A DNA stretch of 31,322 nucleotides from the NCBI GenBank assembly GCA_030615855.1, contig JAUWYL010000015.1, positions 1-31,322 on the forward strand. Reading direction: 5' to 3'. A program made the translations under genes and the position numbers. Of this stretch, positions 11,057 through 21,131 are shown in pieces. Below the pieces are notes generated by a model. That model had not been told where the DNA came from and ran no database searches. It worked only from the letters and a program-made list of their open reading frames with translations. The stretch is from a bacterium (GTDB lineage: Bacteria > UBP18 > UBA7526). The first letter of the stretch is position 1. Every line of letters starts with the position of its first letter.

Positions 11057-11122
11057 ACACGGATTAGCACAGATTAGAAAAAACAGATTAGCACAGATTT
11101 AATCCGTGCCTATCCGTGTCTA
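11057..11122. repeat. CACGGAT/ATCCGTG-family inverted tandem array (abuts the DERA stop codon)
   Basis: 'ACACGGATTAGCACAGATTAG...CAGATTAGCACAGATT' then 'AATCCGTGCCTATCCGTGTCTAAT'. Confidence 0.75.
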
Positions 11123-12007
11123 ATAGCCGGCTCCAGCTGGGGTTCCCTTTATGATAGCCACGCTCGCTGAGGCCCCGATCCTGGTGGCTCCGGCCTTGAG
11201 CAAGGCTTGGACATCCTCAAAGGTTCTGACTCCTCCCGAGGCCTTTACCCCCATAATAGGACCAACTATGCGACGCATGAGGGCAACATCGGCTACCGTT
11301 GCCCCCCCTCCACTGAAACCGGTGGATGTTTTAACAAAGTCTGCTCCAGCTTCCTTTGCTATCTGACAGGCCTTAATCTTTTCCTCTTGAGTTAGTAAAG
11401 CAGTCTCCAGAATCACCTTAACAATCCTTCCATTGGCCGCATTGACTACCGCCTGAATATCCTTTTTCACCAGATCGTAATTCTTTGCTTTCAGGGCTCC
11501 GATGTTCATCACCATATCGATCTCATCCGCTCCATTGGCGATGGCATCCCTGGTCTCCATGGCCTTGGCCGTGGAGGTCGTGGCTCCTAAGGGAAAACCG
11601 ATTACCGTAGTGATCTTGACTGGGGTCCCTTTTAGTACCTTTGCTGCTAAGGGGACATAACTGGGATTGATGCAGACAGAGGCAAAGTTATACTTCTTTG
11701 CCTCCTCACATAACTGGGTGATCTTCTCTGGAGAGGCATCGGGCTTTAAATAGGTATGATCAATGGTATGGGCAATCTCTTCTTTTGGCGGCCTTGCTCC
11801 AATGGTAGCCCCTATCCTCTCTGCTCCAGCAGCAACTACTTTCTCCACCTCACTGGGACACTTAACAACGCATAATCCACAGGCAGTACATTCGCTATCC
11901 GTTGCCGGACAGATGGTCACTCCAGGAATAACTCCTGTCTCCTCTTCAGCAAGGCGCCGCATAACATTCCTGGTTATTCTATCTATTAGCTCATCGAACT
12001 CAGCCAT
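11120..12007 (-). CDS. deoC: Deoxyribose-phosphate aldolase (DERA) with ~75 aa N-terminal extension (encapsulation-peptide-like helix + 4Fe-4S-type Cys motif)
   Basis: 295 aa; catalytic-Lys region '[16 protein letters not shown]', DERA core from ~aa 80 ('IDHTYLKP'); N-term '[19 protein letters not shown]' amphipathic helix; '[12 protein letters not shown]' = CxxCxxCxxxCP; SD GGAGGAAG. Confidence 0.85.
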
Positions 12008-12035
12008 TCTTCCTCCACGTGATTTCCAAGCATAT

Positions 12036-12096
12036 CGTTTACCGTTAACCCGCTTCGCTGTTTACCGTTTACCGTAAACCGTTAACCGTAAACCTG
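12036..12096. repeat. ACCGT-family tandem heptamers (TTTACCG/TAAACCG/TTAACCG)
   Basis: 'CGTTTACCGTTAACCCGCTTCGCTGTTTACCGTTTACCGTAAACCGTTAACCGTAAACC' between BMV1 stop and DERA start. Confidence 0.75.
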
Positions 12097-12099
12097 CTT

Positions 12100-12381: not shown

Positions 12382-12669
12382 TCATTTAGATCGCGGTTTG
12401 GTTGGAGTAACCAAGGACTTGTGAATCCATCCCTCTCTCTTATCAGGTAGTCTAACCTTATACCAATTCCTGCTTTCCTCTAAGACCTTTAGGCGGTCAC
12501 CCTGTTTAAGAGTAATAACTATCTTACTCTCTATTGTAGCCGCACTTCTTATGTTGGCCTGCCCTACTTTGATCCAGACCTTGGCCGGGATTTTCTTAGT
12601 AGTTACCGCAGCACAGCCAGCCAATAGGATAACAACTACTAAGCCCAGTATTAAAAGTCTCCGTCCCAT
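12382..12669 (-). CDS. Bacterial SH3-domain lipoprotein
   Basis: Start taken at ATG (12667-12669) with SD GGGGGTG; signal peptide + lipobox 'LLAGC'; SH3b-like 'AKVWIKVGQANIRS...GDRLKVLEESRNWYKV'; ORF-track start 12687 is TTG. Confidence 0.55.
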   Translation of the reverse strand: MGRRLLILGLVVVILLAGCAAVTTKKIPAKVWIKVGQANIRSAATIESKIVITLKQGDRLKVLEESRNWYKVRLPDKREGWIHKSLVTPTKPRSK

Positions 12670-12701
12670 TCTATCACCCCCTTTCAATCATTCTTCTAGG
12701 C

Positions 12702-13255: not shown

Positions 13256-13789
13256 CTATTTCAAGTATTTTTTTTCTATTCCCATTATCTTATCTACTCT
13301 TCGGGCATGACGACCACCAGCGAACTTAGTCTCCAGCCATACCTTAACCATCTCCTTTGCTAAAGCAACTCCAATGGTCTGGCCCCCGAGACATAGAATA
13401 TTGGCATCATCATGCTCACTGGCCATCTTTGCAGTAAAGGTGTCATAGGCCAAAGCCGCCCTTATTCCGGGAACCTTATTACAGGCGATGCAGGAACCCA
13501 TTCCCGCACCATCGATCATTATTCCTTTAGAACATTCTCCCTTTACAACCTCTGAAGCAACGAGATGGGCATAGTCCGGATAGTCGCAGGACTCCGGGCT
13601 ATAGGGACCACAGTCCTTCACCTTATATCCCAATTCATTGAGATATTTTCTCAGTTCCTCCTTTAAGGGGAACCCTCCGTGATCGCTCCCCATGGCAATT
13701 TTCTTCTCATCCTTAGGAGGAGCTTCAGAGGATTTTAACTGAGCAGCAACTTCTTTTACGATCTTCTTTATGATATCCTCAGAAACCAT
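13256..13789 (-). CDS. rpiB: Ribose-5-phosphate isomerase B (RpiB/LacAB family) with N-terminal encapsulation-peptide-like extension
   Basis: 177 aa; 'IAMGSDHGGFPLKEEL', 'GMGSCIACNKVPGIRAA'; ~30 aa N-terminal extension 'MVSEDIIKKIVKEVAAQL' (amphipathic). Confidence 0.85.
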   Translation of the reverse strand: MVSEDIIKKIVKEVAAQLKSSEAPPKDEKKIAMGSDHGGFPLKEELRKYLNELGYKVKDCGPYSPESCDYPDYAHLVASEVVKGECSKGIMIDGAGMGSCIACNKVPGIRAALAYDTFTAKMASEHDDANILCLGGQTIGVALAKEMVKVWLETKFAGGRHARRVDKIMGIEKKYLK

Positions 13790-13794
13790 TCTTC

Positions 13795-14028
13795 TTACTC
13801 TTTTATAATTTTGATTCTGAATTCCAGGGCCCTATCCCGGGCAAAAGGGGTGATGATGGCATCCCTGGGAACCCTTAATTCCTTGCATCCCTGCTTTGCC
13901 GCCTTAAGCATCACCTCTTCATTAACGAGCATCCTCTTCGTCCCACGGGGAGAAGTTACCTTCCCCTTTCCAGCCAACTCCTTCTGGACCTCTTCAGTAA
14001 CGATTTGAATCAACTTCTCTTTATCCAT
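13795..14028 (-). CDS. Small hypothetical protein with N-terminal encapsulation-peptide-like helix (BMC-associated, no recognisable catalytic domain)
   Basis: ~77 aa from ATG 14026-14028 (SD GGAG 8 nt upstream; ORF-track GTG start at 14037); 'MDKEKLIQIVTEEVQKEL' amphipathic helix then Gly/Lys linker and ~45 aa C-terminal module '...KELRVPRDAIITPFARDRALEFRIKII'. Confidence 0.5.
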   Translation of the reverse strand: MDKEKLIQIVTEEVQKELAGKGKVTSPRGTKRMLVNEEVMLKAAKQGCKELRVPRDAIITPFARDRALEFRIKIIKE

Positions 14029-14050
14029 TTCGCTCACTCCGTTCGCTCAA

Positions 14051-14153: not shown

Positions 14154-14705
14154 TTATAAGAGGGCTTTACGTAGTGCCTCATGGGGCTTGGGGATGACGG
14201 TTCGATTGACTAATAGTCCTTCCTCTTCTATCTCTCTGCAACCAGCATCTATGGCAGCCTTGACCGCATCTACTTCTCCTGTCAAGGTAACGAAGCCCTT
14301 TCCGGCCAATCCCTTTGCTAAACGAATTTCGATGAGTTCTATCTTGGCCGCCTTTACTGCGGCATCTGCAGCCAGGATAATGGCTGATACAGAGAAGGTC
14401 TCTATTACACCAATTGCTTTTAGCTCCTTAATAACGCTCGTTCCCATTATGGCCGGAAAGACATCGGAGTGGACATTGGGAATGACGAAGCTATCCATCA
14501 CTGTTTCTTTACCCACTTCCTTTCCTTTATCGATTGAGGACCGGACACTGGCCACATCTCCCATTACCAAGACGATATATTTACCGGGGCAGATGGAGAA
14601 GGATTCGATGAGGTCCACTGCCGCTACCTTCATCATGGCATCACAGACCTCAAACCCCCGGGCAACACTATTCAATTCCACCATACCGATGGCATTTTTA
14701 ACCAT
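14154..14705 (-). CDS. pduT: PduT-like tandem-domain BMC shell protein (BMC-T, putative Fe-S pore)
   Basis: 183 aa; two PF00936 domains; strong resemblance to PduT as I recall it ('AIGMVELNSVARG...DAMMK', 'SICPGKY', 'AIGVIETFSVSA...AADAAVKAA', 'GLLVNRTVIPKPHEAL'); conserved pore Cys in 'CPGK'. Confidence 0.85.
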   Translation of the reverse strand: MVKNAIGMVELNSVARGFEVCDAMMKVAAVDLIESFSICPGKYIVLVMGDVASVRSSIDKGKEVGKETVMDSFVIPNVHSDVFPAIMGTSVIKELKAIGVIETFSVSAIILAADAAVKAAKIELIEIRLAKGLAGKGFVTLTGEVDAVKAAIDAGCREIEEEGLLVNRTVIPKPHEALRKALL

Positions 14706-14840: not shown

Positions 14841-16163
14841 TTATGCTTCGATAGTAATAGAGTCTCCGATATCGGTTATCTTTCCCTCTATTGAGGCATG
14901 AATCCTTGCTCCTAAGGCTCCTCTGGGAATATCGGCAATCAAATCTCCCACTTTTACTTTCTCATTCAACTTTACGGTCGGGATCGATTTTGCTCCCACA
15001 TGCTGAGAGAGAGAAATCCTGACAAGGTTCGTCCGATATTCTCTCTTCTCCAGAGGAGCATCAAGATTATATTCCTCTATTCCGATCCTTGAGATGATCC
15101 TCTCTGTAGGAACTTTGCGATACTCTATCATGGAATGGGCTTCCTCCGGAGCCTCCTTATGGGGATTCTTAACCTTGGCCTCTGTCAGTTCCTTTTTAAT
15201 CTCCTGATTCACCCTGAGTGGTGATAGTCCAAAAGGACAAGCATATAGATTACATAAACCGCATTCTGAACAGAGGAAAGCAGCGGTGATGTCATTCAAT
15301 TCCTTTCTCATTTCATACCCCACATGCCTCATTATCTTATGGGGTTTTAAGGAATGGCCGATTAAGTACCGGGGACAGAGTTCAGTGCAGTCGGTGCACT
15401 GCATACAGAGCATGGTCTTCCTGAGGATTTTTCTCATCTCCAGGGTCTTGTTCATAATGACCTGATGGTCTTTGGGCAGGACAATCAATCCCGTGGTGGT
15501 CTTCATTACTGGGGAATCCAAATCTTCAATCAGTTTCCCCATCATAGGTCCGCCATCCAAGACAGAAAAATCATTTATCTTTGGTTCAGCTAATCTTATT
15601 ACCTCTCCCACACTCATCCCCACGGGAACCTTCACTGACTTCGGTCCCTTCACCGCCCCGGATATTGTGAGATAGCGATGGGTGACCGGCCTTCTTTCTA
15701 TAGTATCTGCAACATTGATGAGGGTTCCCACATTATCCACCACCACTCCCACTTGTAGGGGAATTCCTCCCTCAGGGACGATCCTCTTCAATACCTCATA
15801 GACCAGTATCTGCTCATCACCCGCAGGATAGAAGTCACCAAGGATAAATAGTTCGATGTGGGATGGAGGATGTGGGATGTGGGATGTTAAAGCAGCGATG
15901 GCCTCTTTATATTTTTCTTTTAAAGCAATAAATCCCTTCTTGGCTCCCGTGGCCTCCATTACTAGCTTTAAACCCTTGATCACTTTGTTCGCTTGGGTAG
16001 CCATTAATTGCTGATCGATGCGCAAGAGAGGCTCACACTCCGCACCATTGGCGATGACATACTCTACCTTGGTCTCTAACTTCACATGGGTGGGGAAGCC
16101 CGCTCCCCCTGCTCCCACCACCCCAGCATCCCTTACTTTCTCAATAATCTCTTTCTTATTCAT
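14841..16163 (-). CDS. pduS: PduS/RnfC-like Fe-S flavoprotein (BMC-associated oxidoreductase)
   Basis: 440 aa; N-terminus 'VRDAGVVGAGGAGFPTHVKLE' as in PduS/RnfC; two ferredoxin motifs 'CMQCTDCTELCP' and 'CSECGLCNLYACP'; in-frame heptamer repeat (~15855-15886) encoding 'HIPHPPSHI'; my manual base count and the ORF track disagree by 1 nt at this start codon. Confidence 0.8.
   Translation of the reverse strand: MNKKEIIEKVRDAGVVGAGGAGFPTHVKLETKVEYVIANGAECEPLLRIDQQLMATQANKVIKGLKLVMEATGAKKGFIALKEKYKEAIAALTSHIPHPPSHIELFILGDFYPAGDEQILVYEVLKRIVPEGGIPLQVGVVVDNVGTLINVADTIERRPVTHRYLTISGAVKGPKSVKVPVGMSVGEVIRLAEPKINDFSVLDGGPMMGKLIEDLDSPVMKTTTGLIVLPKDHQVIMNKTLEMRKILRKTMLCMQCTDCTELCPRYLIGHSLKPHKIMRHVGYEMRKELNDITAAFLCSECGLCNLYACPFGLSPLRVNQEIKKELTEAKVKNPHKEAPEEAHSMIEYRKVPTERIISRIGIEEYNLDAPLEKREYRTNLVRISLSQHVGAKSIPTVKLNEKVKVGDLIADIPRGALGARIHASIEGKITDIGDSITIEA
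15855..15886. repeat. In-CDS tandem heptamer (GATGTGG)x4.5
   Basis: Encodes 'HIPHPPSHI' inside the PduS-like protein, in frame. Confidence 0.8.
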
Positions 16164-20222: not shown

Positions 20223-20978
20223 CTATTTTTTATACTTAATGATCTGGGCAAAGGATTTAGCATCGAGGCTCGCTCCCCCCACTAAGGCGCCATCGATGTC
20301 CTCCTCCCTCATTAAATCAGAGATATTCTCTGGCTTGACGCTTCCTCCATATTGGATTCTAACCTTAGCGGCAGTAACCTCATCATAGAGTTCGTTTAAA
20401 AGTCCTCTAATGAAGGAGTGAACCTCTTGTGCCTGATCTGGGGTGGCGGTCTTTCCGGTTCCAATGGCCCATACCGGCTCATAGGCAATGACTATCTTCA
20501 GTATCTCTTCCCGGGATAGGCCTTCCAGTCCCCGGGTGATATGTTCTCTCACCACCCCTTCGGTCACTCCCCTCTCCCTCTCCTCTAACCTTTCTCCCAC
20601 ACACATTATAGGTGTAAGGCTAAACTTTAGAGCCGTCTTTACCTTCCTATTCACTGATTGATTCGTTTCAGCGAAGAACTGCCTCCTCTCCGAGTGACCA
20701 ATGATGACGTATCTGCAGCCCACACCAGTGAGCATCCCTGGTGAAACCTCTCCCGTATAGGCCCCCTTCTCCTCCCAGTAGACATCCTGAGCACTGAGAA
20801 AAATGTTCGTCCCTCGAATGGCCTTGCCCACCGCAAAGAGAGAAGTAAAAGGAGGACAGACTACAATGTCAAGATCGTTGACCTTGGCGACCTCGGACTT
20901 TAATTTAGTCACTAAGTCCAGGGACTGGTCGATGGTCTTATTCATCTTCCAGTTCCCGGCAATTATCGGCCGGCGCAT
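20223..20978 (-). CDS. tpiA: Triosephosphate isomerase
   Basis: Start taken at ATG 20976-20978 (SD AGAGGAGGAG) giving 'MRRPIIAGNWKMNKT'; 'AYEPVWAIGTGKTAT', 'GGASL'; the ORF-track N-terminal extension runs into the repeat array. Confidence 0.9.
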   Translation of the reverse strand: MRRPIIAGNWKMNKTIDQSLDLVTKLKSEVAKVNDLDIVVCPPFTSLFAVGKAIRGTNIFLSAQDVYWEEKGAYTGEVSPGMLTGVGCRYVIIGHSERRQFFAETNQSVNRKVKTALKFSLTPIMCVGERLEERERGVTEGVVREHITRGLEGLSREEILKIVIAYEPVWAIGTGKTATPDQAQEVHSFIRGLLNELYDEVTAAKVRIQYGGSVKPENISDLMREEDIDGALVGGASLDAKSFAQIIKYKK

Positions 20979-20994
20979 AAACTCCTCCTCTAAA

Positions 20995-21131
20995 CACAGA
21001 TTCACACAGATAAGAGACAGATTCACACAGATCACAGATATTTAATAGCATCCGAATTCCAAAAAATTCTAATATCGAATTTTATAATCTGTGATCTGTG
21101 GCCATCTGTAAACAATCTGTGATGATCTGTG
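20995..21131. repeat. Large symmetric array: CACAGAT x5 (~10 bp phased), then 46-bp A/T-rich centre with GAATT repeats, then ATCTGTG x5
   Basis: rc(CACAGAT)=ATCTGTG exactly; spacer lengths are nearly mirrored (3,4,3,0 vs 0,3,4,2); between BMC-H stop and TPI start. Confidence 0.85.

Follow-up and report, generated by a model that had tools for sequence, protein, structure and literature searches.

Why does a non-redox aldolase carry a cysteine motif of the ferredoxin type in front of its catalytic barrel? The question is raised by a 31,322-nt stretch of DNA from a bacterium of the GTDB lineage UBP18; UBA7526 (assembly GCA_030615855.1, contig JAUWYL010000015.1, positions 1 to 31,322), referred to here as the window, in which the gene for deoxyribose-phosphate aldolase (DERA) is the last gene of a minus-strand operon for a bacterial microcompartment (BMC) of the SPU type. 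Such compartments have been found in more than 280 loci from 26 phyla, are among the most widespread bacterial organelles and are barely characterised (PMC8217296). The initial annotation of the window had described the N-terminal extension of this DERA as a targeting helix followed by a canonical [4Fe-4S] ferredoxin motif, which could act as a redox partner of PduS- and PduT-like proteins from the same locus or as a docking element. Our analysis points to an optional module that probably holds an iron-sulfur (Fe-S) cluster and whose occurrence appears to be independent of these two proteins.

Cysteine loop of the aldolase extension

The N-terminus of the DERA contains cysteines at positions 33, 40, 43, 46 and 50, the last followed by Pro51, and the annotated reading of C33 plus C40-x2-C43-x2-C46-x3-C50-P51 was borne out residue by residue in the translation (codons 1-51 are exactly window positions 11855-12007). 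The pattern CxxCxxCxxxCP has a chance expectation of ~1e-6 per protein of this composition and a six-frame translation of the whole window contains only two instances of it, one in the PduS-like protein and the other in the DERA. In an alignment of 80 DERA homologues (58-93% identical), C40 and C46 are each conserved in 78 sequences, C33 in 76 and the glycine at position 44 in 74; C43 is present in 57 and C50 in 28, and at position 51 proline is more frequent than any other residue (31/80). All five cysteines are invariant in the window's own clade of seven sequences (80-93% identical), where 16 of the 32 positions of aa 29-60 vary. Judged by these patterns, the cysteine loop is not a product of chance and is under selection.

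The complete CxxCxxCxxxCP signature, termed textbook in the initial annotation, is confined to the window's small clade, and the unit conserved across the family is C33, C40 and C46 plus either C43 or C50. The state CCCC- is found in 49 of the 80 sequences, 42 of which are long forms of 400-511 aa, and the state CC-CC in 20, the ~300-aa Anaerolineae/SPU6 enzymes, where a one-residue deletion removes C43. Seven sequences, those of the window's clade, are CCCCC, and the other four comprise two without any cysteine (the sister-lineage allele described below) and two with odd patterns. Where C43 is absent, C50 is thus present, and G44 is retained even where C43 has been deleted. The putative fourth ligand alternates between position 43 in most lineages and position 50 in the Anaerolineae SPU6 enzymes, and the window's full ferredoxin signature is the union of the two solutions, in which Cys50-Pro51 probably serves as a spare ligand or an alternative one. 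According to a rough tree of the barrels, CCCC- may be the ancestral state and the switch to C50 may have occurred more than once. Of 203 DERAs that bear the module, almost every one has exactly four cysteines within at most 20 residues, with spacings of either C-x(2-11)-C-x2-C-x2-C (class A) or C-x(1-3)-C-x4-C-x3-C (class B), and all five are found in only eight. Since four cysteines are nearly universal and their spacings vary, the selected feature is four thiolates in a short loop.

We also observed a group of DERAs from Ignavibacteria/Bacteroidota (L010, L013, L016, L018, L019, L021 and L024-L027) which have an N-terminal helix, only two cysteines (C-x4-C followed by GW) and a GAERI segment, and whose loci contain no BMC genes within 10 kb. 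These enzymes may be satellite cargo, or they may carry a two-cysteine site which is completed across the dimer.

The initial annotation had proposed conservation in close orthologues as a check. The cysteines are kept in 78 of the 80 homologues, which span many phyla, but the closest sister lineage lacks them, so that the refuting condition set there applies only by half. This lineage is represented by a locus from a metagenome-assembled genome (L002) which, apart from the DERA module, is 86-97% identical to that of the window (PduS 92%, BMC-T 95%, aldehyde dehydrogenase (AldDH) 92%, EutN 97%, AckA 96%). Its DERA has retained the encapsulation peptide (EP; 91% identical) and the barrel (89%), and aa 24-60 are replaced (11% identity, with a 19-aa deletion) by a segment without cysteines. 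The same Cys-less allele is found in two independent database clusters (P0008 and P0009), and in the barrel tree this loss is nested inside the five-Cys clade. A sister lineage has thus deleted the module, which makes it accessory and not essential. This natural loss is clear evidence that the module is optional.

The enzyme that carries the loop is a class I DERA. TIGR00126 (deoC) matches aa 78-286 with 313.5 bits (cut-off 117.3) and Pfam DeoC (PF01791) matches aa 81-279 with 71.1 bits (cut-off 23.8). In an AlphaFold2 (AF2) model calculated with the 80-sequence alignment (mean pLDDT 87), the first aldolase strand lies at aa 82-86, in agreement with the annotated start of the barrel at about aa 80. 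The catalytic Asp/Lys/Lys triad (D164, K197 and K226) is invariant in the 80 homologues and, from its motif context and the alignment in PMC11585597, would correspond to D102, K167 and K201 of E. coli DERA. Solved DERAs were matched by Foldseek at E ~1e-30 with an rmsd of 0.7-0.8 Å and 65% identity over ~210 columns (for 5dbu/6d33: E 8.9e-31, target TM 0.96, rmsd 0.7 Å, 65% identity), and none of them covers the extension, that is, the first ~80 aa. Aldolase activity has been demonstrated for an SPU6 homologue without its extension (PMC11585597).

Within the extension, the first element is a helix with a hydrophobic moment that was matched by only 1.3% of shuffles and with the family consensus LVExITREV. 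Similar helices stand at the N-termini of RpiB, AldDH, PduL and an 80-aa open reading frame (ORF) of the same locus, and the N-terminal extension of SPU DERA has been assigned as an encapsulation peptide (PMC11585597). The annotation of an amphipathic helix of the cargo-targeting type is therefore supported, and we regard the helix as a predicted EP. It is followed by a hinge which, in long DERA homologues, is the insertion point of a ~180-aa Flav-like domain. For aa 30-60, AF2 predicts a mini-domain consisting of a beta bridge (32-33/38-39), the Cys loop, a helical turn (46-49) and a helix (51-59), a layout which corresponds at moderate confidence to that of a ferredoxin half-domain; a second weak spot of the model before the barrel lies at aa 69-72. 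The AF2 model that had been suggested for the N-terminus thus yielded the helix and the half-domain-like layout (pLDDT ~75) but not a ferredoxin fold match, since no fold match was found for the mini-domain.

The helix of the mini-domain runs into a segment in which G61, A62 and R64 of the sequence AGAxRIG are invariant in the 80 sequences. A 20-position hidden Markov model of aa 53-72 scored 13-20 bits at the C-terminal AGATRIGAS of 16 out of 17 housekeeping DERAs without extension, compared with a maximum of 5.4 bits in 500 shuffles. The segment thus seems to duplicate the alpha7/beta8 phosphate-binding element at the C-terminus of the barrel itself, and it may have originated by partial tandem duplication.

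A proposed accessory cluster module and its alternatives

The loop resembles ferredoxins more than any other family. Pfam Fer4 (PF00037; gathering score 21.1) scored 17.4 bits against the full-length DERA, below this threshold, and 21.4 bits against the isolated 46-aa module. Fer4 was matched at E <= 0.1 by 15 of 56 family modules, whose Pfam matches were almost all to Fer4_* families, with zinc-finger families represented by two singletons only. When a 46-position profile of the module was compared with all PDB sequences, the best 60 matches were exclusively 4Fe-4S ferredoxin-type chains, led by a polyferredoxin (E 1.7e-6) and a 57-aa ferredoxin (E 1.8e-4), and no zinc-binding family was among these 60. 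Both the glycine after the second motif cysteine and the proline after the last cysteine are hallmarks of ferredoxins. However, the module departs from the bacterial ferredoxin domain: its one motif lies in a loop of ~30 aa with the helix behind it, there is no second motif or distal Cys-Pro to supply the fourth ligand within a ~55-aa (beta-alpha-beta)x2 fold, the only other nearby cysteine is the upstream C33, and across the family it is the four-Cys set that is conserved and not the full motif, given the incomplete conservation of C43 and C50. In true ferredoxins, the CP cysteine serves the other cluster.

A profile search of 1.84 billion representatives retrieved 189 proteins at E <= 0.001. 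The full module (cysteines plus AGAxRIG) was confined to DERAs or DERA fragments, which rules out a portable BMC module, and the remaining matches were polyferredoxins sharing the CxxCxxC core only. Partner cysteines elsewhere in the locus were likewise ruled out, as neither the other cargo extensions nor the 80-aa ORF of the window contain a Cys motif; the hypothetical proteins of SPU6 have no cysteines at all. Five proteins from the profile search (P0122, P0189, P0198, P0199 and P0242; 980-1,780 aa) contain 16-26 CxxCxxC repeats and no CxxCxxCxxxC, and look like giant polyferredoxins without the usual fourth-Cys spacing.

What could the module be for? An SPU6 DERA from which the N-terminus had been deleted retained its activity, formed a dimer and bound RPI, and the full-length SPU6 enzyme was insoluble when produced aerobically in E. 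coli (PMC11585597). A role of the extension in catalysis or in RPI binding is therefore excluded for the SPU6 homologue, and the docking function suggested in the initial annotation, understood as docking to RPI, has to be rejected there because the complex persists after the deletion. Since these roles are excluded and the window DERA lacks a flavoprotein-like domain, our preferred reading, held at somewhat short of an even chance, is that the module is an accessory adaptor which links the enzyme to its targeting helix, is stabilised by a cluster and may respond to oxygen or iron supply. From the conservation and the profile matches we infer that the loop binds metal, probably as an Fe-S cluster. 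According to this model, the extension would be composed of the encapsulation helix, the flexible hinge and a mini-domain of ~30 residues which derives from one half of a bacterial ferredoxin and is joined to the aldolase by the copy of the alpha7/beta8 segment. The mini-domain would wrap one cluster, probably [4Fe-4S], with the remote Cys33 and the Cys40-x2-Cys43-x2-Cys46 triad as putative ligands and Cys50 as a clade-specific spare or alternative, and would take no part in aldol catalysis. With the cluster present, the adaptor would be folded and compact, and with the cluster absent or oxidised it would become floppy and prone to aggregation. How the signature enzyme is packed in the lumen could thereby depend on Fe-S supply and anoxia, and the module might serve as a sensor as well as an adaptor.

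In the initial annotation, the cluster was tied to the PduS-like flavoprotein and the PduT-like pore, and we consider it unlikely that it acts as a relay which trades electrons with this luminal NADH dehydrogenase and pore, or with a fused flavoprotein domain, and thereby helps to export reducing equivalents. The window locus does contain genes for a PduS-like protein, which has two ferredoxin motifs, and for a BMC-T protein with a CPGK cluster site, and the PduS/PduT pair has been proposed as an electron route out of the lumen (PMC11275729). PduS is present in all SPU subtypes but SPU6 (PMC11585597); SPU6 has neither alcohol dehydrogenase (AlcDH) nor MNdh, and how it recycles NAD+ is an open question (PMC11275729). 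However, the distributions are decoupled. SPU6 DERAs carry the four-Cys module, and the SPU6 locus L082 encodes no PduS or PduT-type protein; L084 also has the module without either of them. Conversely, L002 has both proteins, 92-95% identical to those of the window, without the module, and the Spirochaete SPU DERAs have an EP and a low-complexity linker without cysteines, one of them (L058) in a locus with PduS. Among 24 BMC-associated loci, three have both the cysteines and PduS, six the cysteines alone, two PduS alone and 13 neither, where absence of PduS means none within the 10-kb flanks and short contigs that these counts cover. The DERA module thus appears to be independent of PduS and PduT, and the proposed functional tie is not supported. 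Furthermore, a lone cluster on a non-redox aldolase would have no evident donor in SPU6, and the chain from MNdh to BMC-T has three clusters and is complete without it.

A flavoprotein-like neighbour of the loop in other lineages speaks for an Fe-S cluster and can also be read in favour of the relay. Of the 49 class-A homologues, 42 have a domain of ~180 aa directly before the Cys loop, and its similarity to PF02441 (flavoprotein) is weak but significant. A flavin beside an Fe-S centre is a common redox pairing, and the archaeoflavoprotein AfpA is an example of a PF02441 protein acting as a ferredoxin partner. As the PF02441-like domain adjoins the loop, a redox function is still conceivable in those lineages. 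Flav+DERA fusions have also been described from Asgard (Hodarchaeales) microcompartments, in an account that does not mention a Cys loop (PMC12747264). One long EP-Flav-Cys4-DERA gene (P0022, L083 10001-11416) lies in a region where no BMC gene could be recognised within 10 kb; it would fit the 'satellite' DERAs of HO-type genomes, for which EP-like extensions are mentioned (PMC8217296).

Another explanation which we regard as rather improbable is a structural zinc knuckle, in which the four cysteines bind one Zn2+ and stiffen a small linker domain without redox chemistry. Structural zinc sites of the CxxCxxC plus remote cysteine type are known, for instance C-x2-C-x2-C-x7-C in horse-liver alcohol dehydrogenase. 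Four cysteines within at most 20 residues at many spacings (e.g. C-x3-C-x4-C-x3-C or C-x2-C-x2-C-x2-C) would suit such a site, which tolerates a moved fourth ligand, and the role of the module is apparently structural and dispensable. However, the matches of the profile searches are to ferredoxins rather than to zinc proteins; the conserved glycine after the second motif cysteine, the frequent proline after position 50 and the following helix are ferredoxin features, and the module is often fused beside a flavoprotein-like domain. That the cysteines hold no cofactor at all, forming disulfides or being the decaying relic of a former ferredoxin domain without present function, seems very unlikely to us. 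It would account for the clean loss of the module at least once from a retained locus, for the many SPU DERAs without it and for the merely moderate AF2 confidence, but not for five cysteines which stay invariant in the window's clade although one in two neighbouring positions varies there. Conservation of C33, C40 and C46 in at least 95% of sequences across phyla together with the compensatory alternation of C43 and C50 is also hard to square with drift, and stable disulfides are improbable in the cytoplasm of anaerobes. Finally, we give very little credence to a two-cluster ferredoxin formed across the DERA dimer or between dimers, a reading limited to the window's clade, which alone has the complete CxxCxxCxxxCP. 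In such an arrangement, Cys40, Cys43 and Cys46 of one chain would pair pseudo-symmetrically with Cys50 of the other, as a living homodimeric version of the ancestral half-ferredoxin, and would cross-link the enzyme in the compartment core in dependence on Fe-S supply and redox state.

The microcompartment operon and its neighbouring features

Pfam scans of the neighbouring genes gave the operon order BMC-H, TIM, PduL, acetate kinase, BMC-P, aldehyde dehydrogenase, PduS-like (MNdh) flavoprotein, tandem-BMC shell protein, 80-aa ORF, RpiB, BMC-P, SH3 lipoprotein, BMC-P and DERA. The components of an SPU locus (BMC-H, BMC-T, three BMC-P, AldDH and RPI) are all present around the DERA gene, and the JGI contig L081 is syntenic with the operon. 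The scans also agree with the earlier description of a PduS-like flavoprotein and a PduT-like Fe-S shell pore in this locus, and CPGK has been named as the Fe-S motif of BMC-T (PMC12747264). The coordinates of the DERA gene, its parts and these two neighbours are listed in Table 1. A ribosome-binding site 4 nt from the ATG supports the annotated start of the DERA and hence its extension.

Table 1. Positions in the window of the DERA gene, its predicted parts and two Fe-S-related neighbouring genes
Feature	Position	Strand	Basis and remarks
DERA gene, complete	11120..12007	minus	295 aa, ATG start (ORF list); ~70-80-aa N-terminal extension
Putative ribosome-binding site GGAGG	12012..12016	minus	4 nt 5' of the DERA ATG; read from the sequence
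Predicted EP helix, aa 2-23	11939..12004	minus	AF2 helix, pLDDT ~80; hydrophobic moment 0.69
Flexible hinge, aa 24-29	11921..11938	minus	pLDDT <50 at aa 24-28; poorly conserved
Ferredoxin-like Cys loop and helix, aa 30-60	11828..11920	minus	AF2 pLDDT ~75; profile and conservation
Cys-loop codons	C33 11909-11911; C40 11888-11890; C43 11879-11881; C46 11870-11872; C50 11858-11860; P51 11855-11857	minus	
Segment V..VV.AGA.RIGA..G, aa 53-72	11792..11851	minus	Overlaps the module's helix; resembles DERA C-terminal alpha7/beta8
Class I aldolase TIM barrel, aa 78-286	11150..11776	minus	TIGR00126; AF2 pLDDT >90
Tandem-BMC shell protein, PduT-type pore cysteine	14154..14705	minus	Pfam BMC x2; SICPGK in translation
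PduS-like/MNdh flavoprotein	14841..16163	minus	Pfam Complex1_51K, Fer4_17, RnfC_N; two complete ferredoxin motifs, CMQCTDCTELCP and CSECGLCNLYACP

Several other features of the operon deserve mention. The 92-nt spacer between the BMC-P stop and the DERA start (12008-12099, minus strand) consists of self-complementary heptad-like repeats (GTTTACC/GGTAAAC), and short-period repeats or hairpins of unrelated sequence occupy the same position in L081, L002 and L001. As an RNA element this repeat was rejected, its predicted fold being not significantly better than shuffles (no better than 11 out of 200; z = -1.76). The 80-aa ORF (13795-14037, minus strand) has no Pfam match and combines an EP-like helix with a C-terminal ITPxARD... 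motif which is conserved and is also found in hypothetical proteins encoded by further SPU loci (L081 8133-8372, L082 13775-14197 and L086 5565-6104). In L084 (5944-6681) and L085 (2639-3403), the motif stands behind a Rossmann/Flav-like domain with weak homology (E 5e-5) to the Flav-like domain of long DERAs. The ORF may therefore belong to an uncharacterised conserved family of SPU cargo.

Between two of the BMC-P genes lies a gene for an SH3-domain protein with a lipoprotein-type signal (…LLAGC…; 12382-12687, minus strand), which is kept in L081 and in L002 (94% identical in the latter); an exported lipoprotein is an odd member of a microcompartment operon. The TIM ORF (20223-21035, minus strand) is listed with a GTG start followed by MICVNLSLICVNLCLEEEF; its true start is probably a downstream ATG (MRRPIIAGNWK; the TIM of L081 has 252 aa), so that TIM seems to lack an encapsulation peptide. 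In RpiB (13256-13789, minus strand), the sequence MIDGAG places an aspartate at the position of the catalytic base, where E. coli RpiB has Cys66. This agrees with the lack of a catalytic cysteine and the negligible ribose-5-phosphate (R5P) isomerase activity of SPU RPIs (PMC11585597).

Significance and comparison with known systems

The statement of the initial annotation that no DERA with such a module has been described needs to be qualified. Although the extension itself is on record (Dwyer, Sutter and Kerfeld 2024, PMC11585597), neither its cysteines nor a possible metal centre is described in the literature searched: the BMC literature found on SPU DERA, PMC11585597 and PMC12747264 included, mentions neither extension cysteines nor metal nor a likeness to ferredoxin, and searching the literature on DERA for Fe-S or zinc gave nothing relevant. 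If the extension does hold a metal cluster, the DERA encapsulation peptide would be composite and the current model of cargo targeting incomplete. The insolubility of the full-length SPU DERA in aerobic E. coli might then be cured by anaerobic or isc/suf-assisted expression, and a natural cluster-binding tag of ~30 residues beside a targeting helix could be useful for engineering redox-active compartments. The alternation of the fourth ligand and the clean natural deletion provide ready-made experimental controls. The module should be of interest to specialists of microcompartments and of Fe-S proteins, an interest tempered by its optional nature.

The extension belongs to the same family as the SPU DERA extension of Dwyer, Sutter and Kerfeld (PMC11585597), which likewise has ~70-80 aa, begins with an amphipathic helix, continues with an element that is poorly modelled and is absent from housekeeping DERAs. 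Their account treats the whole extension as encapsulation peptide, whereas here it is divided into EP, hinge, a loop of four or five cysteines and a copy that resembles beta8; the loop falls into three Cys classes and has been lost naturally in some DERAs. The Flav+DERA fusions and the long bacterial DERAs (430-510 aa) resemble the window DERA in having EP, four-Cys loop, AGAxRIG and barrel in the same order, and both differ from it by the extra PF02441-like domain between EP and loop.

With the bacterial ferredoxins of Pfam Fer4 (PF00037), which gave the sole profile-level similarity found, the module shares the CxxCGxCxxxCP core and a helical turn plus helix behind the motif. Unlike them, it has one motif instead of two, ~30 instead of ~55 residues and a remote ligand upstream; its CP cysteine is not conserved in the family, the middle cysteine is missing in one large clade, and it sits in the linker of an aldolase instead of forming a redox protein. 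The short 'ferredoxin maquette' peptides, which bind [4Fe-4S] with C-x3-C-x2-C-x2-C, share with the family pattern the combination of a CxxCxxC triad with one nearby remote cysteine. Compact [4Fe-4S] sites with a structural or regulatory role also exist in non-redox enzymes, namely endonuclease III/MutY with the cluster loop C-x6-C-x2-C-x5-C and PurF of B. subtilis. As in DERA, the four cysteines are in a short loop and the chemistry of the enzyme requires no electrons, the first spacings of endonuclease III (x6, x2) are the same, and the comparison suggests a structural or oxygen-sensing role. However, those sites lie inside the catalytic fold and that of DERA in a terminal extension beside the targeting helix, and no sequence relationship between them was sought or found.

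Finally, the conduit formed by MNdh (PduS) and BMC-T(SE)/PduT (PMC11275729 / PMC11626177) brings together Fe-S centres of the same organelle which are encoded in the same locus as the DERA module. MNdh and BMC-T strictly co-occur (PMC11275729), whereas the DERA module does not co-occur with either of them. Since the module is decoupled from PduS and PduT, not every Fe-S motif in a BMC locus can be assumed to be part of the electron conduit.

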